Below, one piece after another: positions 10,267-61,402 of a stretch of DNA of 64,000 bases. This DNA is from Amoebophrya sp. A120. Taxonomy: Eukaryota; Protista; Dinoflagellata. The stretch's first letter is position 1. Every line of letters begins with the position of its first letter. Both the position numbers and the translations under genes were made by a program. The notes beneath the pieces were generated by a model. It ran no database searches. It had not been told where the DNA came from and saw nothing but the letters and a program-made list of their open reading frames with translations. The stretch is taken from positions 483,530-547,529 of the forward strand of contig CAJINV010000021.1 of the NCBI GenBank assembly GCA_905178155.1, given 5' to 3'.

Positions 10267-13200
10267 GAAGAACCGCAATTGTACTTATCTCGACGTCTTC
10301 ACGGTCAGTGGCGGTGCAAGAACATCGGCTTCATCAATTTCGTGTTGGACGACTCCGACCTGCTCGAATCGACCATGACGGGCACACAAACAACCGAGTA
10401 TACCTTGCAGACGGGCTCCTGCGGTACGATTTTTTTTTAGCTTTTCTTGGCTTTGCATAAATCGAAATTGCCATTGCGCACGACACACTACAATTCATCT
10501 CATTTTCGTCTTTATCTCAGAAGATAGCTTTGGGTGAGGCAGGGGTCGTTTCTTTATTATGAGCGCAAGTTGCAGCAAAAATGATCATGAATGGCAAAAA
10601 AATCTTCGTAACCTAGTAAGCCATAGCTTCGCGGCCTTCGCGTCGCGGCCGCAAGGAACCATTTTCAAAAAAAAAACAGGCCAAGTCGAGGAGCTTCTGC
10701 CCATTGGCGAAGACGGGGATCTTCACGGTGAGACTCTCGATTTCCTGCCCGACCTGCCGAGCACGTTCAGCCGGCAGGCCTCAATCAAGTCAGTGGTGAA
10801 TGACGGAAGCGCCAGTCCCGACGGAGGCACCAGGACGCCGCTATCGCTTTCGAAAATCTTCGACTTTGACACCACGTCGGCCTTCGGCAGCAGCAGCGCG
10901 AGCGCGTCCCCGGCCGCTTCGGGTCAGACCACCAAGTCCGAAGGTGGCGGGGATGGTGCAAATTGCACTGTTGGAGAGTTATCTGGGTCCCCGGCCTCCA
11001 GCTTGGAGCGCATGTCTTCGCAGAACAGGTCCTTTACTGGATTTGGCAATAAAACCTCCGGAGGAAACACAACTCAGGTTGTTGTGACCGAGGAAGCGGT
11101 CGCCACGCCCGCGAAAGCCACCTGGATTCCGGCGAAGGCGAATGGCGGGGGTAATGGGTCAAATTTCCAGAACAATAATCAGGATTTCTACTTGTCCTCC
11201 GCGACGGAGGTGATGGGAGACGAGAATAATTACCCCGAGCAAGATCTTCGCAATGAACCGAATAAATCCACTGCTGAAGAGGCTCTTGCGTCGTCGGCCG
11301 TAGAGGACAGCGCCCAGCACAACTGGTCGTCGACCGCGAAAAATAGTAAGGGAAATTATACCTACAACCAGAACGGGACAACTACTGGCACAACTTCGAA
11401 GAAGAAGAGCAAGAAGATGAGGGAGCTGAATTCATCTTACCAAGAAAACACAACCACGTCCTCCTGGTACAAAAAAGACCCCACGACGACGACGTCGGGT
11501 GCTGCGGGAGGTAAGCAAACGGATAAGGAGCTGCACAAAAAAGGCAGCGCAAATTGGACTTCTAACGACAACTGGCGCGCACCGGCGGCGGGTGGGGGTG
11601 TTGATCAACACAAGGAGAATACTAACGGAAAAGACAGTTCTACCACCACTTCTAAGTCCACCTACCACGACAAGGATTACTACTACAGCAATTCCTCGTC
11701 TACGAAGAAAGGATCCGGTGCAGCAGCTGCTATCGCGAAAAGCGGCAGTGCGGACAACCTCTCTTGCTCAGCCACGGAGACCGAAGCGGGCACGTCGAAA
11801 AGCAGCCGGCGGCAACGGAAAAAGGACAGTAAAGGCGCGGCCGGGGTGATTAATAATACCGCGACCACTACAACTTCTAAGGGCGGCAAGGGCGAGATGA
11901 TGAACAGCAAAGGGGACAAAACTTCTAGCAACTCGGGGGTGGTTCACAACAACAGCCAGGGCGGGAAGTGGAGCTCTACGAAGGATAAGCATGGAAATAC
12001 CACATCAACGTCTGCTGCTGGTGGAAATGATACGGTCACAACTTCCGCGACGATTCCCTCTTCCGGAACGAGTTGTGCAGCTGTGGACCACACAGTGTAC
12101 CCTGCTGTAACAACTCCCTCCGGAGTTACAACTACCACAACTGCAGGAGCTGCGCCGTCCCCAATTTCATCGTCTTTGCTCCAGCAGCCGGGCTCCAGTT
12201 CGATGTCCTCGTCTGGGGAAGAAACCGGACCGCGGAAATTACTGGGCGCCTGGGGCAAGCGACTTCAGGAAAAGGAGGAGCAGCAACTCGCGGCCGCCGC
12301 GGCCGCGTCGAAGGAGGAAGTATCGTCTTGTCCTCCGCCCTCCGAGTTGTTTAAGAAAACAATGCCTGCGGAGGAAGTTGTAGGAGAGCAAGCTGCAGTC
12401 GCAGTGCCGATCGACCACAAAGATCTCCACACAACTGCTCCTTCGCCTTCTCCCCCACAGGAGGTCATCAACACAGACCACCAACAGCAGGAACAACAAC
12501 TACAACCTGGAGATGGTCCTCCTCGTCCCTCCACGAGCGGCCAGGCGGTCTGCCACGCATTTGACAAAATGATGCAAGGTGTGAACAAGGATGCCGAGGA
12601 GGACTCTCGCCCGCGCCGGCACACGGAGGGCGGCCACAAGCCGTCGAATTGGTGGCTCAGTGGAGGCGCTTGCTCGACCGCCGAACAGAGCCCGGCCAAC
12701 TGCAGCGACACGGGAGGCTTACTCACGACCACGCGCGGTGGTCACCAGGCCGCGCAGTCGTCCAGCAGGATGAGTGTGGCTCCTTTGTCGAGCTCGGCAG
12801 CAGATGTTGACCCGAATTATCTCAGCCCCCAGGAGCGCACTATGTTGCGCGCCTCGGCACTGACGCCAACGTCCAACGGAGGGAGCACCCCGGGGTGTCC
12901 TCTGGGCCCCACACAGTCGCTGCCGAACATGGTGTCGTCGCGAGGCGGCTCTGACCTGACGTCGACCCCGCCGGGTGGAAATAAGATGAACCAGCAAAGC
13001 TCCTGCCTTGGAACATCAAATGCGACTGGGACGATTGACCAGCAGCAGGCTTCCTTTTTCAACCCGAGCAAGCAGCCACCACAGATGCCACCGGTTATGC
13101 TGAGCGGATCAACTAGTACGTGCGGCACCACAGGTAGCTCTTCCGTGCCTATCCTGTGCAAAAGTATCGTACTCGTAGTAATTGCGCTTATGCATGACAA

Positions 13201-16200
13201 ATTTCTTTCTCAAGGTGAATCAGCATTACAAATTCAATCTGTAATGCTGGGCTAATTTGTAATGCAATTTATACTAGTACGATACTTTTGCAGTTCATAG
13301 TGCCACACCCGGGACAACTGCAGCGCCGTGACATGATGAACGACGCGACGCCGTTCTCCTATCAAAGAAAAAAAGTTCGTCACGATCACTAATGCGCATT
13401 CTTGCAATACAAAGTTGTTTGTCATGCGTAAAAATGCATCACAGCCAAACTTCATTAGGGATTTCCCTAGTGTTTCTGCAATACAGGGAAAGTTTGTGAT
13501 GCTGAGAAAATTTGTAATGCAAAACCTGCAAGTTAGTGACTGTGACAAACTTTTTTTTCTCCATATCTCCGCATACGGTGACAGCACCGTCGCGGTTTCG
13601 CCGAACGAGCACAACATGAGCCCGGTAACGGAGACTTCGAGTGTTCGTGGCAGTGGCAGTACCAACAACTCTTCCAGCGCAGTCCCTGCGTTGCCAACTT
13701 CCTTGCCGCCAAGCATCACAACCAGTACTAGCACAAAGCCGCTAGGTGGGAATGCTGGCGCAGCACCCGGTGAGCAGGTGGTAACCACTTCTAATGCCCC
13801 CGACCCAGTCGCCGGTGGAGCAGAAATTGTGAACCAACAAACTACCACGACGAGCACCGGGATTAGCCACTTGAAAGCGCTGCTGGCCGCAAGTGGCCCG
13901 CAAGCGCCGCCGAGCAGCACCCGCTTGGAGCACATCCCTTTGAAGCTGCCCCCGTCACTGTCCACCGGCGGTGGAAATCTTCCGAGTTCTTCGGCATTTA
14001 ATCTTTCCAGCACAAGTTCTTTTGACTCCTCGCTGAACTCCTTCAGCAGCTTCTGCAGCGCCCAGTTCAACCTGACCACGCAAAGCATGACGCTCGAACC
14101 GAGCAAGCTGCTGGAGCAAGCCAAGTCGCAGCCATTACTGCCGGGAGTTTTGGACCACGGTTACAACAAGGCCGGAGCCAAAATTGATATCGAAGGAACT
14201 GTGCCCGCCACGACAGGGGCGGGCCAGAGTGGTACTACGATTGTTCCCGGACAAACTTCGAACAATCCGCTGCAGCCGCTCCCCTTGCCGCCGACGGGCA
14301 GCAATATTATGCAGCCGATGTTGAGTACGGCCTTCTCCGTCGGTAATGGCTCAACCTCCGGCGCAGCCGGGGCTGCATCCTCGTCGTCCATGATGAGTGC
14401 TGGAACCACCTCCTTGCTAAACACCGCTTCCTCCACTGAGTCAACGACCATGGGAACGATGAATCTACCCAACAATTTCCTCCACGGTGGAAACATCAAT
14501 ACGAACAGTTCTTGCAATAACGTCCTCAATACCCTCCTCGGAGTTACAGCGACGACGTCAAATAACGGGCTCAACCAAAACAACCCGGTCACTGGTCCTC
14601 TGCAGTCGCAGCAGCCACCGGCGCACTTGCAACCGCCACCAGGCCAGCCTTGGTTGGACGGACGCGTGAGCAAGACGCTCAACGGCCTCCCGCCGCTCGA
14701 TTTTGGAAATTTGTTTTCGCCGCAGCCGGGGCAGCCGAATATGGCCGGGAACATGAACAACAGTGGCGCAGCTGTTCTCAACAACACTGGCTCAATTTCT
14801 GGCGTTGTGCATAACGGGGCAGCTGCTCCGTTTGTGCCCGCTCCGTTGAACAATAGTACCATGATGAACAACGCGAATAGCAATAGCAACACCGGGAATG
14901 GTTCTTCTACAACCAGCTTTAATATTCGCCCGCCAAATGCGAGTCCAACGCAGAATCAGAACCAGCAGAACGTCAATCACAATCCGCCAGCGGTTCCGAT
15001 GCCACCACTACCGGGCAGCTCGTCTAACAGCAATAATTTCAACTTGAACCAGCAAAATAACTTGACGCTGAACCTGCACGGCGCTAATACTTCTAGTACT
15101 CCCGCTCCGCCTGTTGGTCCACAATTCGGCGCCAACAACTTGAACATGCAGCAAAATATTAACCTCAACCAGCAGCCGCAACGCGCAGGAGGACCGCAAT
15201 TAGCTACCGGGCCCAGCGCGACGACCTCGCTGAACACCATGCAAGCGCCACTGCAATCCGCGACCATCCCGCCTTTGCCGCTCAACAACAGCGGCGGGAA
15301 CAATGTTGGCAATGGAAATGGTGCGACAAATACGACCATGATTCCGCAACCCCCACCGCCGCCAATGCCGCTGACATCAAACAGTGGACCTGGCGCAGTG
15401 GGAGGACCACAGGGTCCTCAGGGAAGCAACACTATTAACACGACGATGATGAACTTGAACACAACTACTTCAACTACAACTAGTCTCCTGGGAAGAAGCT
15501 TTAGCTCCTCCACCAACCGCGGCATCAACACGATGGCGGCGACGTTTATTCCCGGCGCTACCGAGCACTTCCAGACCGTACCGGACGCGTCGCCGGTGAA
15601 CGGCACCAATGACATCGACGCTTTTGACGGTATAATTCTGTTTGATTTCTTTGTGTACTAGTAGTTTTTGTTTGCTTGTTATAGTTATTCAGCAAGCTAG
15701 TACTATATCGAGGAATACTAGTGTTCACCAACCTCTTATTAACCTACGGGTAAAAATAAGCAGCACCGGATGAACCAAAGCCGCCTGGCTGCTAAATGTC
15801 AATGTGAAAATCTACTCCCCAACCTCAAAGTCAAACTTCCATAAAAACAGTGATGTCCGGCGCTTCCCATTCCCCGATGGACCGCGACGTCGATTTTGAT
15901 TTGACGAAAGTGGTGGAAATGTCCAAGGTTGAAGACAGCAAGCGGAACAATAACGCCACCGCCACCCCGGCGCGCTTCCATCTGCACCAGCACGCGGTAC
16001 CGCCGAGCGCGTCGCCCAACGGGGGCACCAGCGCGACCGCGACGACGACGACGCCAGGAGGTCCGCCGACCTTCTTCCGGTCGGGCACAGGAATGAGCAG
16101 CTCGTCCAGCGGGAGTTCTGGTGCCGCGCCTGCGCCGTTTATTGGGAATAATAGCACGACGACCCTTTCCTCGTCGACCAGTGCTACTGCTACGCCGGCT

Positions 16201-21798: not shown

Positions 21799-24700
21799 AT
21801 GATGACTAGGGTGGGCCCGCGGTCCACGCGGGTCCTACCCTTGGCGTGGGCCGGCGACGGCGCTCTCAGGACAGTATTGCTCTTCGTCTTCTCTACGTCT
21901 ACCACTGTTACTGCAGACGCGGCCCTGCCAGCCCTCCCCGTCACGATCGATCCGTTGCACTTCCTCGACCATGTTGTGGTTCCTGCCGGAAAGAAACTCT
22001 TGTCCCGGAACAAAACACGACCCGCGAACAAGCGCGAGCCTGGAGATCATGATCCTCGCATCCGCACCCCCACTGCCGCGCGTGCTGCGCTCGCAGCCTT
22101 TCGTGAGAAAGAGGGTAGAACAAGAACAACGAGTGAAACACACGGTAAAAAAATCATCTCCTCAGCCACCTGGTCCTCGATCAAAAATGTCGGCAGTGCA
22201 GCAACACCAGCCCAGACGTCGCCGGACCAAGCCTGGAAAAACCGCGGTGAGATCAATGCCGCTATGGCACGGGCGCTGCAGGCTTTGGATGACAACGCCG
22301 CAGACTGTGTCAACTCGCTCCGCCGGTATCGGGAGGAAAATGTTGGAGCGGACAAGAAAACTCGCTCCAAAACGGCTCTGATTGCCGACATGAACGCGGA
22401 AATGGCCAAGTTGACGCGGGCGCGGCAAAAGGCGGAGAGGCGACTGGAAGAAACCGAGGGGTTGATGAAAAGCGAGGTCACCCGGTTTAGCACGGCGAGA
22501 AAGAAACTGACAGAGGAGCTTACCAGTAGACGACAGGAGCTGAAGGACTTCCAAAAAATGAACCAAACGATAGCGAGTCTGAAGCCGTGCGAGCAGGGAA
22601 ATGAAGCTACGACGGAAGGAGCTGCAGCTCAGTTGCAGATAGAATTCTTGCCGCAAGACAAACACCGAGTAGAAGTAGACGCAGGAATTAATACGGGGAT
22701 CCATCGGGAAAGCAGGAGGAGCGCCAGACATCATCATCAATCTGCTGCTGTCGACGACGCAGCGTTAGAACGGTACTTCAGCACTCCTTTTGATCAGCCG
22801 GCAACATTCGCAGTAGAAGGAGCTGCTGCAGCACCTGTGTCTCTTCTGGAAACCAGCCAGAGTACTATCACTGAGCACCAGAAAACCGCCCCATCAGCGC
22901 TCATGCCCGCGCTTTGCCCCTGTGACGACGGTAGTTCCACTTGCAGTGCCCCCAAGCTGACCGAGCGCTTCGTGCTGCTCTACGGCACCGGAGTTGAGGC
23001 TCTAGAGCAAGTGCACCGAGACCTGGCCGCGCTGGAAAAGAAGAAAGGGAGGCAGATGAACCGGTTAGAGAAGATGAGAAAGGACTTGGAGAGGGAAATC
23101 GTAGACCTGACGAAGGAAAAGGAGGCTACGAAAGACACATTCGAAAAAGCCACGTTGGATAAGAGGGCGGCTGGGATGGTTGCCGCGAAATGGGTATGAT
23201 TTTGATTTGTTTGCTGTTGTTCATAATTTTTTTTGAACGATTCAAATAAGAAGGTCGTGAGACTGAGATGGATTTTCTACGTACCATTCATGCACCCGAA
23301 GAAGTTATGCCGACTACATTCTTTCATCTTCTCACACTCATCACCCCCACTCGCGGCTCACAACCCCCTTTCTTCAGGCGAAGCGTTTCTCCTCGACCGC
23401 CCGAGCGTGCCGGAAAAAGATCGACTCCATTGCCCACCAAGTCCTGCCCGCCCTGAAGTTTTTCCGCTCGCACTTCCACGCCTTGATCAAGGCAAAAGCC
23501 GAGCCCATCCAAGACTGTGTCGTTTCTGGTTTCCAACCAGCCACATCCTGCGCCGCTGCGCCGGGAGATGACGGCAAAACCAAAAGCGCTACATGTTACA
23601 ACAGCACTACGACTGCAAAAGCAGGAACAACTTCCGGCAAAAACACGATCGGCACGAAACTGTGGAAGCGCAACATCCTGACCGCCGCGAGTAATATCAA
23701 ATGCAAAAGTGTCTGGGTCTGGAAGAATGCAACTTGTGATGCTGCTTTGGATGTCTAAAAAATCTGTGTTGCATGAGCAGCAAAAGGATTCATCTAATTT
23801 TTGCTCCGCGGAGAGGGCATTTGTCATGCGGAATAGGCATCAAGAATCCAATCCCTCAAAAAACCTGTGACGCTAGGGCATGCATCACAGACATCATGGC
23901 TCATGCAAACCGTGCATGACAAGTCTCAGAATCTTCCAGACCCAGACACTTTCACTTTTGCATTTGATAAGTAACTTCGGTGTGCAGTGTGGGCCGACGG
24001 AGAAAGCCGTTTCCTGTGACCTTCCCCAGTGCGCGAGGCCCTGCAAGGTCGACGGTTGGTCGTCGTGGTCGAGTTGCGAGGCCGGGTGCAGAGCATCGGT
24101 CGGCACGCCCGGAATGCAGCAGCGGACAAGAAAGTCGCTGGAAGTAGAAGATGAAGAAGCTGGTGAAACAAGAACGTCTTCGTGTCTCCAACAACCTCTC
24201 ACGGAAACCCGCCCGTGTAAGTGCGAAGATGTAGCACTTGGAAAAAAATTCTCCAACGTTGCAAACCCTTGCGCGGTTTCCCCGTGGTCCCGTTGGGGAC
24301 GGTGCTCGAAACGGTGCGTCGCCGCGGCGGCTTCGACTGATGCCGAGAAATTTGGAACCCGCTCACGGACGAGGAGATTGCTACGACCTGAAAATTGCAA
24401 AGACGCAGTCGCCGAAACGCAGTCGCTGGAACCAGTCCTGACTGAAATGGAGGCGTGCACAGCCGCAGCTGCTACATCTTTCGCTGCAGAAGTCACGGAG
24501 CCAATAGAACATCAACCAGACGCGATGCAAATGGTGGATGGAATTTCCCTGGTTTCATCCTCTACAAAAGATCAGACCTGTGCGGCCGATTTACGTTGCG
24601 GCGGCGTCCAGGACCTGCTGGTCGCCGTGCCAAGGCTGGGAAGGAGCGAAGTACGCTTCCTCTCTGAATTGTTCAACCGGTTAGATGACAAGCTGTACGG

Positions 24701-27700
24701 AAATGCCGCGGTCAGAGTCGGGGTCTTGTTTTATGGAAGCGAACTCGTGAGTCAGGCTAGGGAAGTTGTAGACGCCTCTTCTTCTACCTCGGCCGCCGGA
24801 GCTGCTGAAGCGTCTCCTACTACGGGAACGGAACCAGAAACAGAGAGTGAGGATGGAGAATTGAAATCCGCTGTGAAGCTCAGCCCACCAAAAATTGTGG
24901 CTGCGCTCGGCGCCGCCAGCGTGAATGGGACTTTGCAAATGCTGCTCAAAGAGAGTCAGCGGCACCCTCCTTCAACGTCCCAAGACCCCTTCCTTCCAAA
25001 CACCGCGGCGGCGGCGGACGTTGCGGCTTTGGAGTTTGCACAAAACGGCCGCGCCAACGCGCAGCAGACCGTTTTGTTCCTCGTACCTGACTGCGAGAAA
25101 GCCCCCGCCATCTTTCGAAAGCGAGCGACCGAAGCATTGTGGAGGCTGAAGAAGAAACTGCGCGTGCAAGTCGTGGAATTACAACAGGACACGAGTAGTG
25201 GTACAACAACCGGTATCAGCACGCGAGCAAAGAGTTCTTCCTGTCCGGCCAATGAGCAACTGTTCAAAAGTTGGGTTTCGGAACCTGTCGCGGAAAACTT
25301 TGTTTCTATAGTTGCTCCGACTTCCTCGGTTGCGACGAGAAGTCAAGAATCAGTACCGAGTTCCGGCACCATGGCCCTCCTCCTCACGAGCAGCTCCACC
25401 TGTCCCCGCATCTACAGCCCGGTGCAGGAGAAAAAGATCGCCGGTGCCGTCGGTTTTCAGCTGCTTCGCGAACAAGCGGACTGCCGCGAAGCGTTGGGGG
25501 GAAACACGACGGTTCTCGGCGTGTACGAAAGTCGCGTGGCCTGTGCCAAGGCAGTCGTGGCTGTGACGCGGGACGAGAAAGCGAAATTTTCCATGGAAAC
25601 GAAGAAGTTCTGGGTGGCGCCATCAGGAGCTGCGTCAAGAAGTACAACAACTACTTCTCCTGATGTAGAAACGGCCACACAAGGTGAGGGCATTTCTGAA
25701 AATGCTGCCAGCGGTGGGGCAGGGCCGTTTGCAACCCGGGAGCTTGCTACGAGATGTGTGTTGCATCAAGAAGGAGTCACGGACAGCAAAGGAAGTGGTG
25801 CTGCAATAGCATCTGCACCATCTGCAGCTTCTCCGGTGGATTCTTTGAAGTGCAACCGGAAGTCGAGCCCCGATGAACATGATGAGCAAAACTACGAAGA
25901 TCAGGCTTCTTCATCTTCATCTTCCGGGACGACTACAACAAAGATGAACCTGTTCAGCATTGTAAAGAACGAGACGGTGTTTGGCGCCCTGGCGTTTGAC
26001 AAAACTTCCGAGTCACCGTTAAATGCCAACGCCGGAAAGGTTTCGCTGGCGACAGCGGAACAGATTCGTGCGGTCGTCGCTCGCAATAAGAAGTTGGCGG
26101 CAGGAAGAAAAAGTGAAAAGACAGAGGAGGAGAGGTTGCAGGAGAAGGCGTTGCGGGCGGCGAAAGAAAAATTGGAACAGCAAAAGGAAGCCGAAAAATT
26201 GGAACAGCGAAAAGCCTTGGCTGCGGAGAAAGCAAGGCAGAAGGAAGGCGAAGGCGCGAAGCGCGATGCCGCGGCGAAGGCTGAAGCGCTGAAGCGAGAG
26301 CAGGCGGAACGGGCAAAGCAGGAAGCCCTTGCGAAGAAAACGATTGCGGAACGGGTTGAGGCCGAAATGAAGAAAGAGAAAGCCGCGAAAGCAGAGCAAG
26401 CGGCCAAAAAGGCCAGGGAAAAAGCAGCTGCGGAAAAGGAGGCGCAGAAGGAAAAAGAAGCGCAAAAAGCGAAGGAGGCGAAGGAAGCAGAGAGAGCAAA
26501 GGAGGCACGAGAAAAGGCGGAAGCGGCGCAAAGGGCGAAGGAAAAGGAGGCGAGAGAGGCTAAGGAGCGGGCAGACGCAGAGGAAAAGCGAGCTAAGCAG
26601 AAGTTGGTAGCAGCGGAAAAAGCAAAGGAGGCACAGAAGGCAAAAGAAACGGAAGAGAAAGCCGACAAGGCTCGGGCCGCGGAAGTAGCCAAGGCGAAAG
26701 AGGCGGAGAAGGCCAAGGCAATTGCGCAAAAGGCAAAGGAAAAAGAAGCAGCTAAAGCTCGCGCTGCGCAAAAGGCAAAGGAAGCTGCCGATGAAAAAGC
26801 AAAACAAGCTGCAAAAGCCCGGGATCATGAAGCCGAAAAGGCAAAACAGGCCGAGAAAGCCAAAGCCGATGCGCAGAAGGCAAAGGAGGCAGCAGCAAAG
26901 GCGGCAGAAGCAAAGAAGGCTAGAGAACAAGCGGAAGAAGCGGAAGCGGCAAAAGAAGAAGCAGCCGCAGCTGCGCTCAAGGCCAAAGAAGAGCTGGAGG
27001 CAAAGCGAGAAAAGGAAAAACAGGAGGCCGCCGCGAAACAAGAACAGGCCGATCAGGAGCGAGAGAAAGCTGCTGATGCGGAGGCCGCAAAAGAAGTTGC
27101 GGACGCGGACGCAGAGGAGAACGCAGCCGCGGCTGCGGAAGAGGCGGCGGAGAAGAAGTTGGCGGATGAAGCGCTGAAAAAAGCCCGGGAGGCCGAAGCC
27201 GAAGCAGAGAAGTTGAAGCAGCAGGAAAGGAAAACCAAGGCGGATGCGGCGAAGGAAAAGCAGGACCGCTTGAATATGGCGCTCTCACACGTTAATACCT
27301 TGATCGCTGGTGCGTGATGTCGCATTGGTTTAAGATGCTGCAAGAATCACAAAGGCAAAAGCCGGGGTCTTGTTGCGCACCAGCTTTTTGATGCAATACA
27401 TTCATACAAATCCGGCAAAGATTTTGATTTCCAACCTATAAATGTAGCGCACAGTCAGCAAGACTGATTCATGGATGCGAGTCAGGGTCAGCTTGATCAT
27501 GCTCCCGATGTTGGTTACCAGAGGTCGTCGTCATTCTTTTTATCCTGCATGACAAAATAAAATCAAGGAGAAACATATCAACATGTTGTACCAGCGAACA
27601 ACGTAATATTAACGTCTGAAAAACGCCATATTAAGGGACCAGCAGGCCGCGAAAGACCACGAGAAAAAAGCAGTTTCCCGCGCCGTGGAGGCGGAGCGCG

Positions 27701-46164: not shown

Positions 46165-46304
46165 GTTGTTGCCTTGAAGAATGTAAACGTAGAGTGACAA
46201 ACTGAAGCTGTTTACTTCCTATATGAAATTGTTAACCGCGGCTTTCATTGTGCCCTTGGTAGAAGTTCACGTCCTGCTTCTCCATCTCGGGCTTACTACG
46301 ACAG

Positions 46305-46800: not shown

Positions 46801-47159
46801 GAGCTTAACAACAGCGCCCGGCTCGTAATATGAAGAGGGTGCATAACTCCACTACTTCCCTTCTAATGTGCTGTCATGCGAGATATTACAATGTTGTGCG
46901 TCCTCTCCAATTGCATGTAGTTATCGCGTTTTCTTGTTTGTGCTTGTTTTGGAGGGTGGTCTACGTCTACGACTACGTAAACGTACGTAGCTGCAGCTTG
47001 CATTTACATGAAAACGAATGACAACCATCAAGAGCACTAGATCTTCATTCCGCGCGCCGTCGTGGGTTTGTAATCATGCAGCGTCAATGTGAAGATAGAA
47101 GAACTTCAACTTCTACCTTATCGCATATTTCTATATATTTGTTTCTGTTGTTGTGAACA

Positions 47160-50100
47160 ATTATGCCTTGTAAGGGCGAGGGAATTTTGCACGCTCGTAT
47201 CGTCCCGTTCTCCGCGTATCTTTCAATTTCGGCTTGCACTCCCCACACATATGCATTGCAAATATGTCACCAGGGTCATCTGGAAATAAGATTGAATGGC
47301 GTCGAGCATGCAAATGACTTTTTTGCATGAGGACAGAAACAGGAATTTGGACAGCTCAGGTTCACTCGCAACAACAAAAAATCTGGAAAAAAGATTGGAG
47401 CTTCAACTTGTGATGCCCTCTCCCAGTCACGCAGAGATCTGGAATCAATGCATGAGTCGCAAAAGCTGGCCACTTTGTTTATTTCTATTTGGCGACAGTG
47501 CGAGATGAGGAATCGTTCTCATTGCCATTTTTAGACCATAAATGGACATTGCAAAGCTGTTGCAGAACTTGTGATGCTGGACTCTGCGTTCATCGTCCAG
47601 ACCTACTGGACCACACAAACTGCGTGACAATAGGATTTTTCCCGAACCAGACATACACATACACGGTCAACACGTATTTGCACTGCATAAAGCACCCCAC
47701 ACTCCCACGTTCCATGTCCCGCTACCCGCATCGGGCCCCAGATCGACTTCTACGCCCCCCACAACATCGTCTCGCTTCCGGACCTTGGTTCCGTTGTAGC
47801 GCTTCTGCGTTTCACGGTTTTCCTATGGAGGAAGCGAAGCGTCAGCGATCGTTCAAAGCCGACAAAGTGAATACGAATAGCGATTTCTTATTCATATTCT
47901 TGTGATGAAGATGCGTATAATTATTTACAAGAAACTACCGATGCCTTTCTTTGCTTTCTTCGACCGTCCATTTCTAATCGTTGCACGACAAATCTGCGGT
48001 TTGTTCCGACAGAAAGGGCGCGAGCTGCTCTGGAGGTGCTCATGCGCTTCAGAAAGAAACAGGTGTCGCCCAATCCGCAGCGCACGCAGGCACAGGACTA
48101 CAAGTACAATCGACCTCACGACTTGCTTCGCTTGCAATATCGATCATTTTTTTTGTTTTTGTATGGCATATTTATTCAGGCAAAAATAAAATTAAAAGCA
48201 CAATAAACTCATTTTCACTCTGCCGAAGGTTCTACACGACGTTGACACAGAGGTATGAGAGTGCACAACTCCCCCTCGTCCCCTCCATTTGTCATGCAAA
48301 ATAGCAAATCCAGTTCCTTTCCAGCCGAGCCTTTTCCCTTTAGCGCTGCTTGTATGACGGGTTCAGGAAGCCGAAACACTAGTACTATCGGTCGCAAAAT
48401 TCCCATGCAAACACTGTATTTTTGCCAGCACGACTTGTGCTCCTGCTGCTTATGCTTTTCAAATGAGGGGGAGGGGGGGTTGTGCACTGTCATAAGACAC
48501 TCCGATCATACACCTGGATGCCCGGGGGAAAAAAAATCCGTCTTAATGTCCTCGTAAAAAAAAGCGAAGCACGTAGACAAACACCAATTGTCGAACGTAA
48601 CTGGGTATGCGTTGCAAAGGTCGTATCGTACTAATAGTAGAAATTGCAATAGTTGTACAAATCTTCCCACAAAAGCAAAAGGTATAAAGTAAAATGGAAT
48701 TCGTACATGCAGAGTTCTTTTCTTTGCATAACAAACACAACAGGATCAGGCATGGGCAACACAAAAAATAAAACAAAAAGATGAAGATCTTCTGTCATGC
48801 AAGACAGGCACGCATAGTCATACAAGTATAAGATACTTTTGCACAGGATCATAATGGCACGCGAACATAGTATCGTTCGATGTCGTGTGGGAGCAGGGGA
48901 TGGCGTTGTTGACAAGAATAGGCGGTGAAATTATGCTGGGCGATGTCGCAGACCATTCGCGTTTCCCATTTTTGGTCCCCGGATTCTTGCATTTTCTTCT
49001 CTATTTCCTGTGTGTAGTGCAGGAGAAATGGGTCAGAATTCGAGGCGCTGTCCCATCGCCCACGCTGCCCGGTTCTGGTGCCGTCTAAGTGCTATGCATT
49101 GCAAATATGTCTGGGTCTGGAAGATTGCTGGTGCAAGTTGTCCTGCTAAATCTGAATCATGCAAAAATCTGTGTCTCATGAGTAGCAAAAGCTGGTGTCC
49201 GCTTTTGACCAAGTTGAGAGGGAGTTGTTTCTCATGCAGGATAGCCACGATAGCGACCTCACAGAATCTGTCATGCTGGGTCCCGCATTCGGCATTCCAG
49301 ACCTCATGGGTCACGTCATGGAAAAACTGTATGACAAGTCGCGCACCCTTCCAGACCCAGACATATTTGCATTTGATAAGTGCACCGCTTGCAGTATAGC
49401 GGTAAAATTGGTATTCGTATTCAGAAATCGCAAATTTTCTTTGCCCCTCCAAGGGCGGCCGGCGACCCAGCTGGATGTGGTGCGGCAGCGACAGGAAGAG
49501 CACTAGACAGGTAAGTTGGCGGAGTTCGGCGACCCTGCTATTTTTAGATGGCATTTTTGGAATGAGTGAATGGCTATCTATTAATGTAGCTAGCTTGTCG
49601 TGGTGTTAGATAGTTCAAAATGTGACTTGCGCTTGTAGATGTGATTCCGCATATCCTGGCGTGTTGCTGCTTTTTCCGGAGCGACGTAGCTGCGCTAGGC
49701 ACTGCGTGTTGGGCACCACTATGGTGCCCAAGGTGGACACCGTGGCGAACCTGCTGCTGGGCCGAGCCGGAGGACCCGTTCTGACTATCTTAGATAGTGA
49801 CCGAACATCTCAAGCGCTATCTATATTTGAACTATCTAGCACCACGACAAGCTTAGCTATTTCATTCGCATTCGCATTCGTCATCAAATAACTTCACTTT
49901 CGAAAACACAGTAAAAAAGGTCGGCGCAGACGACGGTGAAGACGGGGGCGGACGACCTTGGGCGGCAGGTGGAGGAGATTGTTCTGCTGGGCTGGGAGGG
50001 GCCGGAAAATTTTACGAATATTGAATACGAATACCAATTTTCCCGTTATATGCAGGTCCCGAGCGGCGTCCACGGGCCCGAGGCCAAAGCTACCAAGTGC

Positions 50101-52248
50101 AAACGTGTCTGGGTCTAGAAGACTGCCAGGTTTGTCATGCAGATTCTGTATGATCCATGACGTCGCCCCCTGTGTTGCATGATCTAGCATCACAGATTTT
50201 TCGAGGGCTTCCTAATGCGTATCCCGCAAGAAAAATGCCCTCTCCGCGTAGCACAAACTGGACTCCGTCCTGTTACAGCTACTGGTCATGCAATACAGAT
50301 TTTCATTTTTTTGGAATCCAAAGACAGCACTACAAGTTCTGACCTTCCAGACCCCGACATTTTTGCAAGGCGTAAAAACCGGGAATCGTCGACTTGTCGC
50401 TGCTATGACTTGCAAAACTATCGCACTGGGACTGGCAGCAGTGCTGCCAGTGCGGTAGCAAAAACCGCATTGCAAATTAGTTCAAACTCAGCATGACAAA
50501 TGAAATTGTTATGCTGGTTTAATGTACAGTTATTGTTTGTTTGTTCATATTGGACACACGGAATCCGGGTGAAGGTTTTCTTCTCTCGTGTAATGTACAG
50601 TTATTATTATTGGGTACATTCGAAAGTAGGACATCTGTAGTCATGCATGATTTTTTTTTTTCATCTGTCATGCATGAACATGATTGGGATAAAATTTTCA
50701 GTACGAGAACGATGATGCTTTTGTAGTGCATATCTGATAAAATCTGCGCTACTGCGCAAGGACCGATCTACAGCAGCAAGTCTTTCTCTTACCCCAGCCT
50801 GCCGTCGTTCTTCCAGATATCGCGGGTTGGGGCTGAACAGAGAAACCAGCCAGTCTCTCCACGAGACAGGCTGTATGTCTTCCGGGCTGTTGCGTGAGCT
50901 CAGTAACCGAGCGATGATGTTCGGATGCCCGTCTTCCTCCACGCGTGCTTCTATCGCTACCGGTGAATTCCAGGGTACGTAAGAAGGGGTAAAGTTGATC
51001 GCTGGGTAAAAAGGTATGCCAAGTAAACGCAAGCTGCGAGGAGAACACTTGCAGGCAAGGAGATCTCCGACTACTGGTCTGGCCTCGAGTACGTTTCTGG
51101 AGCACCAAAAACCCTTGTCGAAGCACCACTGCCAGTTGCCACGATATGTAGAAAACCGGTTCGCTTGATGTTCTCCACGCGGGGTTTATCCAGAAAAAAA
51201 ACCCCATCCCCATCCAATTTGTGATGCAAAACATGCAGAAGCTGCAGGGTTTGAAATGCAAAAAATGGATGGGGATGGGTGTTTTTTCCTGGATAGGGTT
51301 CGCTTCCTATTTTTTGCCTCCACGGCGCCGGCATTTTTATTTTTCTCGATTGTTGATGCGGGAGGTCCTCGTGGCTTCTTGTTATCACCGATCATATTAT
51401 CGGTCGCGTCCTCCGCTTGCACGAAGGTAGCACGTGCCCCCACTTCGACAGACATAGTACCAGCCGCGGTTCTTTCCGCGTTGTTCTCGACCGTGTCCTC
51501 CTCGCGTGGTTCATATGAAAGCCTCAGGTTGGAAATTAATACTCAAAGTGGGGTAATGCAAAAAAGCGACTCCAGTCGAAGCAGCATTTCTAGCCGGCGC
51601 ATGACAAAGGTCCCGGGCACTCAAAACGTGTCTGCCATGCTAGGTAGGTAAAGGGGTGCCTTTCTCTCGTGCTAATCAGCGGCCCAATTCTGAACCCGTA
51701 GAAGCACAACGAATAGTCGGCCTCCATTGCGTTCTCTGCAATACAGTCTTTTTGGTGTCGCATTTCATCAGGCACCATCACAAATTATTTTCACTTTGAG
51801 AATTTCCATTCTGAGGCTCTCATAGTCCATCTTCGTGACTTCTGGTTCTGTCGGCCGCAACATCGCTGTCACCATTTTGATCATTTTTGCCGCGTAACCG
51901 AGCCCCAACATCTTCGGGGAGAAACAGGCCAGCGATCGAGATGCAGGTGTGCAAATGCGTGGTCAACGCGATGTATCAAATGTAAAAATGTCTGGGTCTG
52001 GAAGAATTCATGTTTGTCATGCTTGTCTGGCATGACTCTTAAATCTGTCATGCACGTTACCCAAGAGCTCCGTTTTTCTGTGATGCAGAAGCGCTGTTTG
52101 TCATGCAGAATAGGCAACACCTAGGAGCTCAGAAACTTGTCATGCTGAGCCAGCATTTGTAGCCTCATCGACCATGAGACGCCACCCAGCATCACAAGTT
52201 TCCAGACCCAGACATTTTTACATTTGATACGATGGGGGGCGACTTCAT
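47160..52248 (-). CDS. Hypothetical protein, possible signal peptide; at least 10 introners (3' end unresolved)
   Basis: From ATG 52248 (MKSPPIALTTHLHTCISIAGLFLPEDVGARLRG) the frame stays open across 8 consecutive introner excisions to ~48585. A likely 71-nt GT-AG intron (48514-48584) and further exons follow. No family recognised. Confidence 0.65.
47250..47689. mobile_element. Introner, family A (degenerate, with insertions)
   Basis: TATGCATTGCAAATA..TATTTGCACTGCATA; TSD ACACA/AAGCA; flanks join in an open frame (WNVGVWG.WGVQAEIEK). Confidence 0.7.
48254..48494. mobile_element. Introner, family C
   Basis: TATGAGAGTGCACAAC..GTTGTGCACTGTCATA; TSD AGAGG/AGACA. Confidence 0.8.
48606..48853. 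mobile_element. Introner, family B (degenerate)
   Basis: TAT..ATA with TGCAAAGG..GTATCGTACT / GATACTTTTGCA; TSD CTGGG/ATGGC; 253 nt removed. Confidence 0.7.
49093..49378. mobile_element. Introner, family A
   Basis: TSD AGTGC; 291 nt removed. Confidence 0.92.
49395..50050. mobile_element. Large introner, family I (~55-bp TIR plus nested internal inverted repeat)
   Basis: TATAGCGGTAAAATTGGTATTCGTATTCA.. / ..TGAATACGAATACCAATTTTCCCGTTATA; TSD TGCAG; 661 nt removed. Confidence 0.9.
50091..50374. mobile_element. Introner, family A with TAC..GTA termini
   Basis: TSD AAAGC/AAAAC; 289 nt removed gives IPGF|GLGPVD. Confidence 0.87.
50404..50732. mobile_element. Introner, family B (degenerate)
   Basis: TATGACTTGCAAAACTATCGCACT..GCTTTTGTAGTGCATA; TSD GCTGC/TCTGA; 334 nt removed. 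Confidence 0.7.
51187..51295. mobile_element. Smallest introner (109 bp), H-related
   Basis: TATCCAG.AAAAAA..CCCATCCCCATCCA TIR; TSD GGGTT; 114 nt removed. Confidence 0.92.
51514..51824. mobile_element. Introner, family G (TATGA.AGCCTCAG..TGGAAATT TIR)
   Basis: TSD GTTCA/GTCCA; 316 nt removed. Confidence 0.88.
51974..52229. mobile_element. Introner, family A
   Basis: Perfect TIR TATCAAATGTAAAAATGTCTGGGTCTGGAA; TSD CGATG; 261 nt removed. Confidence 0.93.
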
Positions 52249-53295: not shown

Positions 53296-56200
53296 TCAGC
53301 AGTTGTGACGCTTCAGGACCTTCATGGCATCTGGCCACTGCAGTCCTGGGTCACATCCAGTCTGCTCTTTGTGCTGCCCGACGAAGATCGGCGGCCCGCC
53401 GCCCCCTGCTTTCCGGACCTGGATCCACTTGCCGTCGCACTTCGTGGTGCACTTTTCGGCGAACTTCACTCGTGGGTTGCTGTGGTCAACGAGGCGCACC
53501 TTGATCAGTGAAAAATTGCGGGGGCGCATCAGCGCAAGTATCCTCCACATGCAGAGCCTTCGGTTACCAGTCCCCGCGAGGAAGAGAGTTTTCGTGCCCG
53601 CTGGAGGATGACAGCCGCCACCTCCTGGTGTGGGGGCGCTCTCGTCGTCAGTTGTTGCGTTCTTCGTGGGTGCAGTTGCCCAGCACACGTCGAGGCAGTC
53701 CAAGGTCGCTGGCGTGTTTTGAGCGACTGCTTGCAGCTGTTCCGCCAGCGAGTCCAGGATGCTCTTGTTTGTCTGCCGTACCGCGCGACCAGAACTCGTG
53801 TCCACGTAGTCCCGGAATTCGGATTTGATCGTGTCATGCGTAAAGTGGACGTCGAGAGGAGAGACCCAGCAGATTGTGCCGAGTTTTGCGGTCTGTGACG
53901 GCAAGCGTGCATACACGTCTGCACCGGTCACCAGGTACCGCGGCACCGTCGTTGCGGAGTCACAGGGCTGGGCACAGACGGGGCAGGTCATGTGCTTCGT
54001 GAGAGGATCGCCTTTCTTCGCTGCGTTTGCTCTTTTCACGGCCAGGTGACCGGTGAAGCACGAGACACAGTGGTTCCACGATTTGCAGGTACAGGTTCGC
54101 TTGCCTTCTAGGATCGGGATGGCTGGAAGAAAGTTCCCGGCGTCAAGCAGCTCGCCGTATGGAATCGCGCAAATCACGCAGCACTCCTCGGCCGTCACCG
54201 TCTGGCAATGGTGAGCCGGCATCTCGTATTGCAGCACCTCGACCAGGCACACCTCGCACGTCAGTTTTGTGAACGGACAGCTCTGTTGGTGCACCGCACG
54301 CTCGTGGAGGGGGCCGCGCCATTTGCAGCAGGCCACGTTCTTTGCATTGGTTTGGCCGCACGAAACTTCTCGAAACTCACACGTCTCCTGCTGGTGCCTC
54401 TCCATCGCAACTGCCTTCACGCGGGCACCGCACTTGCCGCAGGTCTTCATAGCGTAGGCACAGGTGGTCTGCTGATGGTTGTTCAGCTCGCTGGCAGGCA
54501 TGAACTCGCCGCAATCTTGACACATCACCTCACGATTTTCGCATTTTTTCCGATGCCGCTTCAATTTGTCCTTGTTTTGCTGGTCCTCATTGCAGTGCGG
54601 GCATACGAACGCACGCACAGTAGACGTGCTCGCAGCCCCGCAGGTATTCGCAGCTTCCGCTGCGCCCGCTTTGATGCCCTCGAGGCGCGCTAATTCTGCA
54701 CGAAGCAGCGGGATGTCCGTTTCCAGGACACGCCGGAGCTTGGACGTGCCCGGCTCGGCGCTGTTCATGTTCGCCTCGTCGCGCAGAGACAAAGTTTCAA
54801 CGACGGGCTATGAATTGCGAAAGTTGTATCGCACTCGTATACGTTGCAGCCATGCAGATGACAAATACGTTTCCCAACCAGCATTACAAATTCAAATTCC
54901 ACTTTTGTGTTATAGCAAAATTATTTGTAATGCAATAACCCATAGCTACTAGTCGTAGTCCTAGTGCGATACTTTAACTTTTGCAATGCATACGGACTTC
55001 GCTGCCGCAATTTCGACGTTGTCGTCTCCGTCCATTTCGTCCGGTGAAGGGTCGTCCGCATTCGACGCCGCAAGGAGAATGCATGGCGTTCTCAAACGTT
55101 ACATCCATAGCTGCTACACGCTTTGTCATGGAAAATTCCGATCACAATCGACACGATCAAGCTGCTTCGCATAACTAAGTCTCGAATGGCCAAACAGACT
55201 GGGAATCTGTGCCAAATGTGTCACGCAAGACGTCGCGCAAGGCCACGGTCGCTTCCTCACTTTTCCCATTCTTCCATCACAAATTTATGTAACAGTTGAG
55301 AGTGTAACGTTTGAGAATGCCATAGAATGGCGCTCCCGTCGAATTCTTGGAGAAGAGTTTGGATGTTTTCGAGACAAGCGTCCAGACCCTTCTTGTTGTT
55401 CTCCGATACTTTGCAACCCACGTGCAGCGTGTCGCGCATGCGATGTACCTGAGAAAGCCACTCGGAGGAAAGTTGGTTTTTGCGAATTTCGATCGCCTCG
55501 TGCCGCTGGCTCTTCTCCAGTGCGGATTTCGTGTTTTCGACCTGTTCGACCGTCATCTCAGTGCGTAGGCCTGCGTCAAGATCTTCACCGAACTCCTCCC
55601 AGGGATTCCGAACCTCACGGTCGTCAGGAATCAGGTCGGTTTGGTAGTGTGCGAAGTAGGGCACGTCGATGATGTCTTCGTACCGCAAACCGAGCCAGCC
55701 CTTGTGCGCAAGCGCGGGGCGGTCTTCCGGGTTTTCGTTCACCAGGAAGGGATCGCAGCTACCCGTGTCCTTGCCAAGGCCTCTCATGTGGTCTGAAACG
55801 TACAGCGCAAACTGCCCGTTCTCCAGCCGAAGGTCTCGCTTCCACGCCCGGCCGTAGAACGGAATCGCTCGCATGTTTGTGGTGCAGCAGACAACGCTTT
55901 CCTCGAAAGGCGCTGCGTGATTTCGATTTGGTTGATGCGTCCCGCGAGCGCCTCGTCGACCGGCTTGCGACTTTGGTTGCGCCGATTGTCCACGGTGCAC
56001 ATTTTTCTTCTTGTAGCGAATCAGGATTGTTTTTTTCGAGAGCACTCGCTGGAGTTCGGCCAAAGGAGGCACCTTTGGAGGAGGGGCGCCGGCGTCACCT
56101 AGCTCTGATAGGGCGCCGGGACCACGAAACGCAGCGCTGCTGTGGGTGTCAAGTTCCAGCCGATTCATCCACAGCCACGGTTTCATCGGCGGATTTGTGG

Positions 56201-59200: not shown

Positions 59201-61402
59201 AGTCGGAATCGCTATCGAAGCCAGCGGTATCACCGTCATTTACTTCCTCGCACGAATTAAATGAGTCAGAGTCATCTTCTGAGTCATCAGTCTCCGTAGT
59301 CACGTATGCTCCTCCGGCGGCCCGGTCGTGGCGATGCCTTTGTCGACGTGGTGAACGAAAAACATGACGCCGCTGTCTGCCGCTCGTCCCTCCTCGTCCC
59401 AGTAGAAAATTGGTCACAACATCGGTTTCATTCGAGCGTGCCGGAACAAAGGTCTGGGTGAACTCCATTGTCTTCAGCGTGACAGTGTTGGCAGCGGTGA
59501 CTGTGACAAGACAACCGGATTGCTTGGTGTTGTTGCTTGATGCGGATGTAGCGCACGGAGCCGGTTTTGCTGCGGCGTCAAGAAAAACGACGGACTGCGA
59601 GTTGCTTTTGCCAAATTGAAGACCAGTAACACGCGGCCACCGCGCAACTCCGCATCCCCGGTGTGGCACCTTTGTGGGAGCCCTTCTAGTTTGCGTCCAT
59701 GCTGTACCGTTCGGCTGTACCTGTAGCTCGAACAAGAGCAACTCATCCTTAACTATGCAGAAAAGCTGGCTGGCGTCGTCGGAGTTCGGGTTAAACCCAA
59801 ACCAACACGAGCTCCCACACAGTGGTGGGGCTGATCGGTAGTTAGTGCCAAAAGTTGAAATGTTGTGCGGCCCTTCAAGAACCACTGATGTTGTGTTTGG
59901 AGAGTTCTGCGGCCCCTGCCCGTCAGACGGCAAGATTGGCAGCGCGTCGAGCTCGATCGTGCGAATGCCAAATCCCGATGGTGCCACTGCAACACGTCTC
60001 CCGTTCGCAGACGGATCCAAATGTACCGCCCCACCAATGAGGCCAACACCCATTATGTCATTAACTGTTCCTATTAGCTTCGGCGACGTACCTGAAAAAT
60101 CTTCCTGTGGCATGCAAGAATAGATTGTATAGGGTTCATTCTTCTTTCAGATCAACTTTAAGTTCAACATCACTTCTCGGCAAAAAAAGATCAGCTAGTA
60201 CCTTTAAAATATCCGGTAAAAAAATTTTCGTGGTCCGAGGAGTCTTTTTTATTTCCGAAAGCAATTCGTACGAGCTGTCGTCCTGACGGAAATTCATAAA
60301 AAACCGGAAGTTCGAGTCTGTGTAGCATGGCGAGTCGGCGACGGGCAAGCCGGGCCTCTTGTTCAGAGAACGGCATGCGACCACCCTTCGGTCTCGTGGC
60401 ACCCTCGTCTTCTGTCGTGTCTATCAAACTCTGCAGCTCCAGGGGACAGACTGCTTTGCAGGCGATCGCGATGCGCGCCTCCGTCCACTCCCGTCCAATA
60501 GTACTGAACCAGTCAACCTTAACCGTGTTGCGTGCGCGGTCGCTGTCGGAAGCAACCACTGGTGAGTACGCAGGAAGTTCACTTTGGCCGTTCAACGTCC
60601 GTCGTATCCACAGTAAATTTCCCGTACATGACGGGACATACAAACGCGGTTTCCGCGTTATATACTTTCTTTCAGTGCTTGTGCTATTCAACAGCATGAC
60701 AAGTGGCTTGATCGAAGTTGTTGAAATTTGTGATGCATTTTGTTGTACGTGGTGTGGAGGATGTACAGAAAATTATTTGTATTGCATACGCCGCGTCCAT
60801 CCTTCGTCGATGCGGTCCTGGAGTTCCCGTCGAATCCGCCAGCCGAACATGCCCGCCATGTTCTGCGGCGAATCCTCGCCATAGAGAGCAAGGGCCCGTA
60901 AAAGGTGATGGAGCTGCAGCTCGAGGTGTGGTCCTCCGTCCTCAGGACCAGCATCCAGTGGATAGCCGCAGCTTTTCGCAAGCTTTGCCCATTTGGGAAT
61001 GGCGCCGAGGGCACTGAGGTGTTTCACGTGCGGACAGCCACGTGGCAAGCCTCGGGGATCCACCTCGCCGCCGCTCCACTCTAGCATCGGCAGCGACTGC
61101 ACAAACGCACCGTAGTCAGCGGGCTGGATCAGGAAGTTTGCGCCAACTTGACCGCCCTGGAAGCCACCTGGTCCACGCGTTCCGTCACCGCGGGCGCCGC
61201 GCAGGAGGGATTGGTGTTCCAAACACTGCTCGCGATGGCCACGAAGCGCGTGTTCCGAGCGGCACTCGTTCTTGCAGTACACCGCCAAACCACAGCCGTC
61301 GCAGACCACTGGGGCCGCTACCGCGTTCTTCGAACAGAAGAAACACTCCACATACGGTAGCGGCGCAGAATACAACAGTGACAAATCCGGATCGACCGCC
61401 AT
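53296..61402 (-). CDS. Giant multidomain protein (~2470 aa): MYND zinc finger, TPR/ST7-like region, coiled coil, C2H2/TRAF-type zinc fingers, RING, C-terminal ParB-like domain
   Basis: Four ORFs and a short exon join in frame via introners 60659, 55082 and 54809 and canonical intron 60092-60201. Motifs: CFFC..CDGC..YCKNECRSEH..HREQC; ALAEEALNVYPDCVGAY, PWGHPDNRPFLR, LLCLNPSDNQGIR; HQQTTCAY..CGKC; CVIC..C.C..HCVSC..CPVC; DVHFTHDTI..GNRRL. Confidence 0.75.
54809..54992. mobile_element. Introner, family B
   Basis: TAT..ATA; TSD CGGGC/CGGAC; 189 nt removed gives AAKSV|VETLSLRDE. Confidence 0.85.
55082..55324. mobile_element. Introner, family D
   Basis: ATGGCGTTCTCAAACGTTACA / TGTAACGTTTGAGAATGCCAT; TSD GAATG; 248 nt removed, same length as 42609-42851. 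Confidence 0.9.
60659..60788. mobile_element. Degenerate introner
   Basis: TAT..ATA ends, internal GCATGACAA and TTGTGATGC, weak TIR. Removing 135 or 138 nt (flanking repeat CCGCGT) keeps the frame. Confidence 0.65.

Follow-up and report, generated by a model that had tools for sequence, protein, structure and literature searches.

The introners of Amoebophrya sp. A120 have been described (Farhat et al. 2021, PMC7789003) as elements starting with TAT, seven variable bases and at least three A, bordered by 3-5 nt direct repeats, able to form a hairpin, spliced non-canonically and without U1, and falling into nearly 2,000 families with different inverted repeats, no putative transposase being reported in the text of that account. 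The introners in the window (i.e., the whole 64-kb stretch of A120 DNA analyzed here) are non-coding, TIR-flanked elements with the same TAT/AAA ends and direct repeats, the latter being 5-bp target duplications (first found without assuming TAT, and exact in 292 of 387 copies). Within the ends, conservation is again highest at positions 1-3 and 11-13 (mismatch 0.01-0.03 and 0.02, respectively, compared with up to 0.42 at positions 4-7), the conservation of end positions being partly built into the element detection rule. What differs is the interior: the text of the published account covers inverted and direct repeats and mentions no internal cross-family motif or spacing rule, and the letters of the box considered below have no match in its main text or supplement text (PMC7789003). 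A literature search found no description of a phased box common to different families.

Subterminal arrays of transposase-binding sites are present in Mu and Sleeping Beauty, and in systems of this kind the sites are generally specific to a single family and to the transposase of that family. For piggyBat, with Tn7, Tol2, Tag1 and Ac also cited, these arrays represent a known need of several transposons (PMC11707139), and the box resembles them in that multiple short sites lie inward of either end, oriented both ways, with set spacing and under mobility selection; unlike them, it is common to 13 TIR types with differing inner TIRs, and its binding is putative. Ginger2/TDD-4 integrase-type transposons combine TGTNR ends with 4-5 bp duplications and a cognate Gypsy-like integrase (PMC2836005), and TIRs with 5-bp duplications are a likeness to TDD-4 and TDD-5; unlike Ginger, however, the window elements end in TAT (TGT at 2 of 58 ends), no target preference was found for them, and neither a transposase nor an integrase was matched in 187 ORFs (of 239 listed). 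No long coding element was found in 559 kb, and a 238-aa ORF in a long family N copy (L018 505-1608) had no Pfam match; integrase-like ORFs between TIRs have been described for A120 introner family 38 (PMC12130899). Lastly, ApiAP2 sites of the apicomplexans, a sister lineage, read TGCAT or TGCATGCA, and AP2 domains, which bind TGCAT there, have been tied to mobile-element integrases (PMC4117751). The box likewise starts with (T)GCAT, but it lacks symmetry, has a greater length and keeps to the elements instead of upstream regions, and this likeness may be taken as only a lead to the identity of a binder.

The initial annotation had proposed GCAT(G/C/T)ACAA as a box enriched in introners whose TIRs differ and rare elsewhere, giving nine coordinates for GCATGACAA, all of which are exact. 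GCATBACAA has 48 matches in the window (13 copies each of GCATGACAA and TTGTCATGC, plus the C and T variants), compared with a shuffle mean of 1.93 and a maximum of 6, so that none of 100 shuffles reached 48, and the absence of enrichment over background, which the annotation had named as a way to be wrong, does not apply. Twenty-nine TAT-ended introners (8,188 bp; a partly hand-curated, and hence not blind, list) hold 46 of the 48 matches (5.6/kb, with exact ones in 23 of the 29), versus 2 (0.036/kb) in the remaining 55,812 bp; among 10 probable GT-AG introns that were chosen by visual inspection, 9 are without the box. The motif as proposed is real, although too narrow: a leave-one-position-out matrix extends it to W-GCAT-B-ACA-R-RTTT, with T preceding GCAT in 53%, the whole being a high-information motif of 9-14 bp. 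This matrix was used in place of an unconstrained EM search, which was discarded after drifting to a palindromic TGCA-type motif. A box-blind set of 357 TIR+TSD elements in 559 kb (detection gave no false positives in 3 shuffled windows) carries the box at 12 bits or more in 353 cases, with 738 matches in 89,122 bp of elements versus 347 in the other 469,631 bp; the additional loci stem from one assembly and were chosen by the family A pattern, and 183 of the 357 elements are of family A.

The features are listed below in window coordinates, the elements having no strand assigned; box positions are element coordinates of the first G (> for the + strand, < for the opposite one), and "skipped" refers to RNA-like contigs.

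13150..13299, introner of family B; duplication GTGCC; boxes 43>, 74>, 98<, 116<
13360..13565, introner of family M; duplication TCTCC; boxes 45>, 68<, 143<, 161<
13713..13721, strand +, exact 9-mer in a long ORF outside elements, probably chance
23695..23969, introner of family A; boxes 48<, 78<, 135<, 179<, 188>, 220>
27547..27555, strand +, box within what is probably a GT-AG intron (about 27312-27645, borders by eye), which also contains a J-like TAT end (near 27629); perhaps what is left of an introner
30967..31261, introner of family C; duplication CCACC; 3 exact boxes
39204..39497, introner of family A, decayed; boxes 148>, 206>, 237>, without an exact 9-mer
40242..40502, introner of family A; boxes 48<, 79<, 181>, 213>
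40555..40845, introner of family A with a TGT left end; boxes 50<, 85<, 100>, 145>, 243>
40956..41219, introner of family A; boxes 54<, 85<, 119<, 139<, 178<, 218>
41268..41417, introner of family B; boxes 43>, 74>, 98<, 116<; skipped together with a single copy of the duplication
41888..42055, introner of family B; box 46>; skipped
42334..42544, introner of family D; boxes 123>, 165<, a 42-bp convergent pair; skipped
42609..42851, introner of family J; boxes 54<, 149<, 189>; skipped
42898..43133, introner of family G; boxes 84>, 152<, 193>
43394..43673, introner of family F; one-way boxes 79>, 129>, 162>, 211>, 241>
43739..44014, J-like element in a decayed state, borders set by eye; boxes 69<, 117>, 227>
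46829..47199, decayed G-like element; one 8-of-9 core (46872), no matrix match of 8 bits or more; skipped
47250..47689, old family A element, duplication decayed; boxes 167<, 328<; skipped
47824..48510, old intron with TAT ends, inside which a family G copy is nested (48254-48494); skipped
48606..48853, old family B element; weak boxes only (10-11 bits); skipped
49093..49378, introner of family A; box 184<; skipped
49395..50050, TAT-ended element, TIR and duplication intact; no box, best matrix match 8.2 bits; skipped
50091..50374, old family A element; boxes 50<, 97>, 200>, 237>; skipped
50404..50732, old family B element; boxes 64>, 88>, 270<; skipped
51187..51295, introner of family H, 109 bp; box 41<; skipped
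51514..51824, introner of family N; boxes 86>, 262>; skipped
51974..52229, introner of family A, perfect 30-bp TIR; boxes 49<, 80<, 133<, 172<, 216>; skipped
54809..54992, introner of family B; boxes 73>, 125<
55082..55324, introner of family J; degenerate boxes 145<, 193>
60605..60788, introner of family K, recognizable TIRs, ends by eye; boxes 90>, 132<, a 42-bp convergent pair; duplication with 1 mismatch

Some individual readings of the initial annotation need amending in the light of this list. The box at 27547 had been counted as an introner box, but the probable GT-AG intron around it shows one J-like end and no recognizable introner; the copy at 60659, held to have kept its box after TIR decay, still has its TIRs; and the occurrence of the box in introners holds for nearly all elements rather than for every one, 49395-50050 having none. 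Among box matches beyond position 20, none lies within 33 nt of an element end.

The sharing of the box by families with differing TIRs is borne out, CATGACA being present in at least 40% of the copies in all 13 TIR types, while box-masked interiors fall into 9-11 groups that are unalignable outside the boxes. In favor of the box being a functionless remnant of the interiors' common descent, some groups are related (D/E/I; the A subfamilies), with a few between-group z values of 5-6 hinting at remote kinship; most, however, are below 5, boxes and spacings persist where spacers cannot be aligned, within-family divergence is 0.055 in the box versus 0.194 in the interior, and inherited box mutations are depleted about 7-fold. 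Since box and interior rates differ, a reading without function, to which the annotation had coupled neutral decay, is refuted, and we regard it as scarcely credible; common descent may account for where the box came from, but not for its having been kept. The ratio of internal to terminal changes, for which trees were built from held-out columns and accompanied by permutations and simulation to avoid tree overfitting, is 0.058 at invariant box positions, 0.177 in the box core and 0.085 in the inner TIR, versus 0.416 in the interior; sites simulated as uniformly slow give 0.41 (copies were realigned unmasked, as box-masked profile alignments inflate box mismatches). Selection on the box acts at copying, and daughter copies seldom inherit its mutations. 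Insertions of at least 3 nt are strictly common to several copies in only 23 of 474 cases.

The arrangement of the boxes is constrained too. Neighboring direct pairs are spaced by 31, 32 or 33 bp (167, 52 and 16 counts), convergent pairs by 42 bp (46 counts) and divergent ones by 38-41 bp (48 and 46 counts at 40 and 41 bp), and the same values return in different families; when each of 11 groups is represented by a single element, a common helical face with a 10.4-bp turn accommodates the 32 adjacent pairs with a score of 0.57, reached by 0 of 1000 random sets. A single spacing lattice is broken by spacings of 39, 18, 24 and 54-57 bp, and the periodicity of box distance from the ends is weak and not significant (p 0.05 and 0.085; best periods 9.0-9.3). 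The 10.4-bp phasing and the strand symmetry would suit DNA wrapping, and the box core contains ApT, as might be expected if chromatin were marked by the positioning of nucleosomes or nucleoproteins, or by ApT methylation, with no link to any sequence-specific transposition factor. Positioning signals, however, are generally dinucleotide-level and genome-wide, as opposed to a long high-information motif almost absent outside elements, and box mutations are purged specifically in propagating lineages, which makes such a mark very improbable. As for the pattern elsewhere, box pairs were met at 7 prokaryotic and 2 viral loci, mostly in tandem repeats and none with a TAT-ended element, and were taken as chance; the family A TIR had no matches in viral contigs.

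If the box acted in RNA as a signal for splicing, recognized by a protein that binds RNA (UGCAUG-like, i.e., the RBFOX motif), by a small RNA or through box-to-box stems, it should keep to the transcribed strand, but 498 boxes are sense and 560 antisense, and 20 elements have antisense boxes only versus 12 with sense boxes only. Families with single-direction boxes have inserted both ways (5 sense/7 antisense in family F, 4/2 in H, 6/8 in A3), and the box signal is therefore read in double-stranded DNA. In predicted folds 109 of 276 boxes do pair with another box, and pairing is more frequent in boxes than in the rest of the interior; nevertheless, RNA stems do not explain the box, because such pairings are absent in family F (0 of 38) and number 1 of 15 in family I. 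Rfam gave no matches in the window, and the strand symmetry speaks against complementarity to snRNAs. An RNA-level signal is largely refuted by the orientation data and appears extremely improbable.

A role after insertion, which the initial annotation had offered as a mark licensing excision, is weakened by the following results, though not in every respect. Among the 15 joints listed of 40 in RNA-like contigs (runs X1 and X4; one sample, their RNA nature being a guess), 14 are skip joints, all at TAT-type elements and non-GT-AG; this RNA support spans 41000-60999 only, splicing at 13150-40845 being deduced from restored reading frames, and reads of the raw RNA runs X9 and X10 mapped to element fragments only and gave no splicing evidence. 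By the insertion clock, the post-insertion slope is 0.021-0.026 for the box (interval excluding 0), 0.029 for the inner TIR and 0.040 for the interior; the difference between box and interior excludes 0, and the box decays at 55-65% of the interior rate, G1 and C2 being slower still (0.011 at G and C positions versus 0.035 for the inner TIR; mismatch at C2 only 0.011). The site class "int_cons" was left out of this comparison as biased by its own definition. Together with 65 insertions observed in box cores versus 97 expected, this slower decay may reflect post-insertion constraint or alignment bias, and it leaves some room for a partial role after insertion. It is also what would be seen if the protein used in copying went on to help the host, e.g., by marking DNA for co-transcriptional non-canonical splicing. 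Against such dual use, the box decays about as fast as the inner TIR and outpaces TAT and AAA at the termini, and mismatch at its invariant positions (0.025) is about half that between the duplications (0.052), as neutral decay of two copies predicts; private indels are as frequent in 31-bp spacers as in long ones (0.75 and 0.78 per 100 nt), so phase-breaking insertions are tolerated in phased spacers after insertion, and elements poor in boxes or without them are skipped too, 49395-50050 being a counter-example to the box as a splicing requirement. On balance, we consider dual use unlikely. The target-duplication clock gave increments of about 0.01 throughout, with wide intervals and too little power.

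Helical spacing, strand independence and the near absence of inherited box mutations instead support the other branch of the initial proposal, a putative site for a transposase or accessory factor: the box is probably a subterminal binding site of a transposition factor common to the TAT-ended introner families. One protein, common to all families, would bind the box in double-stranded DNA and be needed for copying to new sites; it would sit beside each end on boxes that are spaced by 31-33, 42 or 38-41 bp and so face the same side of the helix, and could bend or wrap the 110-330 bp element, helping to join both ends for transposition. The protein could be the transposase or, about equally likely, an architectural factor of the host. 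Once the element is inserted, the box would be mostly dispensable, and splicing would likely rely on the hairpin between the two ends and on TAT and AAA at the termini; these two terminal motifs are better splice-signal candidates than the box. A more ambitious proposal, by which one host-encoded protein recognizes the phased box, licenses mobilization whatever the inner TIR and stays bound to mark U1-independent splicing, so that a single factor would link the birth of an intron with its removal, strikes us as quite unlikely. The element at 49395-50050, which had inserted and kept its ends intact without a box, counts against the subterminal-site reading, as do the lack of transposase or integrase matches among the 187 ORFs, the weak end periodicity, the spacings that break a single lattice and the hints of remote kinship between groups.

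Being conserved and phased across the families, the box points to a mobilization factor that they have in common and provides a DNA bait with which to catch it. The introner would thereby be split into parts serving copying (the box, the inner TIR, length and phase) and parts conserved after insertion (the terminal TAT and AAA), and the box could help to find and date old non-canonical introns. It could also bear on how A120 introner families spread without a known transposase and are spliced without U1 (PMC7789003).

All nine coordinates at which the initial annotation had placed the box proved exact, and its core, GCATBACAA, occurs 48 times in the window against a shuffle mean of 1.93, a count that none of 100 shuffles got to. 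Nearly all matches (46/48) lie inside 29 TAT-ended elements (5.6 per kb vs. 0.036 per kb outside), a curated list of which 16 came from a TIR-plus-duplication search, the others being added from RNA joints, from profile hits or on inspection; the copy near 60659, the TIRs of which the annotation had taken to be decayed, has recognisable ones (60605-60788). The two remaining matches are:

13713, box within a long ORF
27547, box within a probable GT-AG intron (27312-27645) also holding a J-like TAT end (i.e., resembling that of introner family J) near 27629

This intron is perhaps an old introner become canonical.

For a larger sample, at least 147 loci were drawn from one metagenome assembly by the TIR pattern of family A, and, with overlaps merged, 495 kb plus the window were searched, which gave 357 elements (0 false positives in three shuffled windows). 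Box density was 8.3 per kb within elements vs. 0.74 per kb outside, the latter falling to 0.27 once profile hits were masked, and several of the 14 leftover outside clusters printed are in additional TAT elements. The top 7-mer, CATGACA, occurs in 40% or more of the copies of every TIR type (13/13), the motif extends to W-GCAT-B-ACA-R-RTTT, and 353 of the 357 elements have a hit of at least 12 bits. As to the claim that the families sharing the box are unrelated, 21 family representatives stripped of boxes and TIRs fell into 9-11 groups without clear homology, save for a few cross-group z of 5-6. In one variant of family A and B ends (47253, 49096, 39494, 42006), position 4 carries GCATTGCAA, which resembles the box (11.5-12.8 bits); the box and the element end may share a recognition mode.

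A box-blind search by TIR and duplication returned elements that begin with TAT, have AAA at positions 11-13 and make a 5-bp target duplication, and the window elements match the end signature given for Amoebophrya A120 introners in PMC7789003. Two runs of a single sample, guessed to be RNA, contain contigs that omit the elements, the intact ones together with one duplication copy, and when an element was deleted along with one such copy, the frame stayed open and coding-like at 279/349 sites. Among the 15 entries listed (of 40), 14 are skip joints, at 41000-60999, and all of them fall at TAT-type elements, some of these old and with decayed duplications. A dual use, in which the box also serves splicing, is rather unlikely; element 49395-50050 is without a box, yet is skipped in these RNA-like contigs, as is 46829-47199 with its single weak core. 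The terminal TAT (positions 1-3) and AAA, nearly unchanged with age while the inner TIR decays, are candidate splice signals, with detection bias possible.

Several features of this region and others can be described alongside. The TAT-ended 49395-50050 nests a non-TAT inverted-repeat element (49592-49853; 28-nt arms, 96% complementary), and at 49379-49394 two introners are merely 16 nt apart, both being skipped in RNA-like contigs with a micro-exon retained (six letters between the joint sides). On the minus strand, 46245-52420 is one transcript region, in which some eleven introners separate very short exons; these exons, joined, give an open frame of 497 residues. A small protein at 30653-31392 that we take to be Alba-like is split by a family C element, its unspliced frame giving no Pfam hit. 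The Pfam-supported host genes are:

41373-41915 and 60776-61438, aldo-keto reductase and MYND finger

Gene-poor sequence at a strand switch (34000-39000) holds repeats that are first AT-rich and then GC-rich; 38490-39030 and positions 1173-1714 of metagenome locus L070 agree to 80%. The first 1 kb of the window (1-1000) is an array in which short units repeat in tandem.

Host strand was assigned by a codon model (correct at 14/15 window elements passing its margin), and families with one-way boxes proved to be inserted in both orientations: F at 5 sense and 7 antisense sites (5 without a strand call), H at 4 and 2, and A3, a family A subfamily, at 6 and 8, with 498 sense vs. 560 antisense for all boxes. 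Predicted folds pair the TIRs (0.78-0.94), and pair boxes with each other in 109/276 cases overall, 0/38 in F and 1/15 in I. Because one-way families lie both ways and predicted box-box pairing is near-absent in F and I, we infer that the signal is read in double-stranded DNA; that it acts at the RNA level is very improbable, and a chromatin mark is scarcely a better candidate.

Neighbouring boxes in several groups are spaced at 31-33 bp (direct), 42 bp (convergent) and 38-41 or 51 bp (divergent), and boxes start 40-41 or 48-52 bp (outward) and 34-37 or 43-48 bp (inward) from the element end. The 32 adjacent pairs (one representative per group, 11 groups) can be placed on a single helical face, taking 10.4 bp per turn, with a score of 0.57, equalled in 0/1000 random sets; periodicity in end distance alone was not significant (p values of 0.05 and 0.085), and some spacings, namely 18, 24, 39 and 54-57 bp, fall outside the pattern. 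The spacing rule is local to each end, with no element-wide lattice.

Mismatch to the within-family consensus (261 copies, 18 clusters of at least 4) is 0.055 in the box core, 0.058 in the TIR and 0.194 in the interior. With private insertions as an age clock (409/411 copies, sites away from indels), decay slopes were 0.040 for the interior, 0.029 for the inner TIR, 0.021-0.026 for the box, 0.007 for TAT and -0.004 for AAA, so that the box decays about as the inner TIR does, and its lag behind the interior is significant (under a stricter filter, 0.009-0.012 vs. 0.022 for the TIR). Insertions in box cores are also fewer than expected (65 vs. 97), and either observation may reflect real constraint or alignment bias. 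Neutral descent, to which these rates bear directly, is a most improbable explanation. Trees were made with one half of the interior columns (clusters of at least 12 among the 372/411 copies passing score and duplication filters). On them, the internal/terminal change ratio was 0.416 in the interior columns left out of the tree, and sites simulated as uniformly slow gave 0.41; the box core had a ratio of 0.177, invariant positions of the box one of 0.058 and the inner TIR one of 0.085, each of these three being near its permuted value. Because this ratio is low for box positions, box mutations appear to be dead ends for propagation. Private indels are about equally frequent in 31-bp and long spacers (0.75 vs. 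0.78 per 100 nt); phase is therefore not kept after insertion.

Private indels in 372 copies (window and L001-L147, the metagenome loci) comprise 569 insertions vs. 107 deletions, biased to 3 nt (240, with 65 at 6 nt). Among insertions of at least 3 nt, 330/451 are multiples of three, and perfect tandem duplications number just 74. In another count of insertions of that size, 23/474 are strictly shared between copies (leniently, 165 vs. 129 by chance). Since removed lengths spread over all three frames (135/92/119), frame selection is no obvious cause. Left and right TIRs of family A agree above expectation, perhaps through shared ancestry, at positions 14 (0.72 vs. 0.49) and 10 (0.74 vs. 0.65), and not at 4-7.

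We consider it fairly probable that one protein common to these families binds the box as a phased subterminal site and so aids transposition; such a protein would help by bending or wrapping these short elements and bringing both ends together. No transposase was found among 187 ORFs or among long elements, and the 238-aa ORF of a family N element of 1.1 kb (505-1608 of locus L018), the insert of which is repetitive and GC-rich, has no Pfam match. An ApiAP2-type binder is, by analogy, a possible lead. Ginger membership was rejected, the ends being TAT, whereas those of Ginger are TGTNR. The box would work like the subterminal arrays of cut-and-paste transposons (PMC11707139). Such arrays generally belong to one family, whereas the box is shared between families. 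No description of the box was found in the literature searched, text searches of PMC7789003 and of supplement files of PMC12130899 (text, as distinct from figures) included; the box is a real component of these introners, and apparently one that had not been described before.
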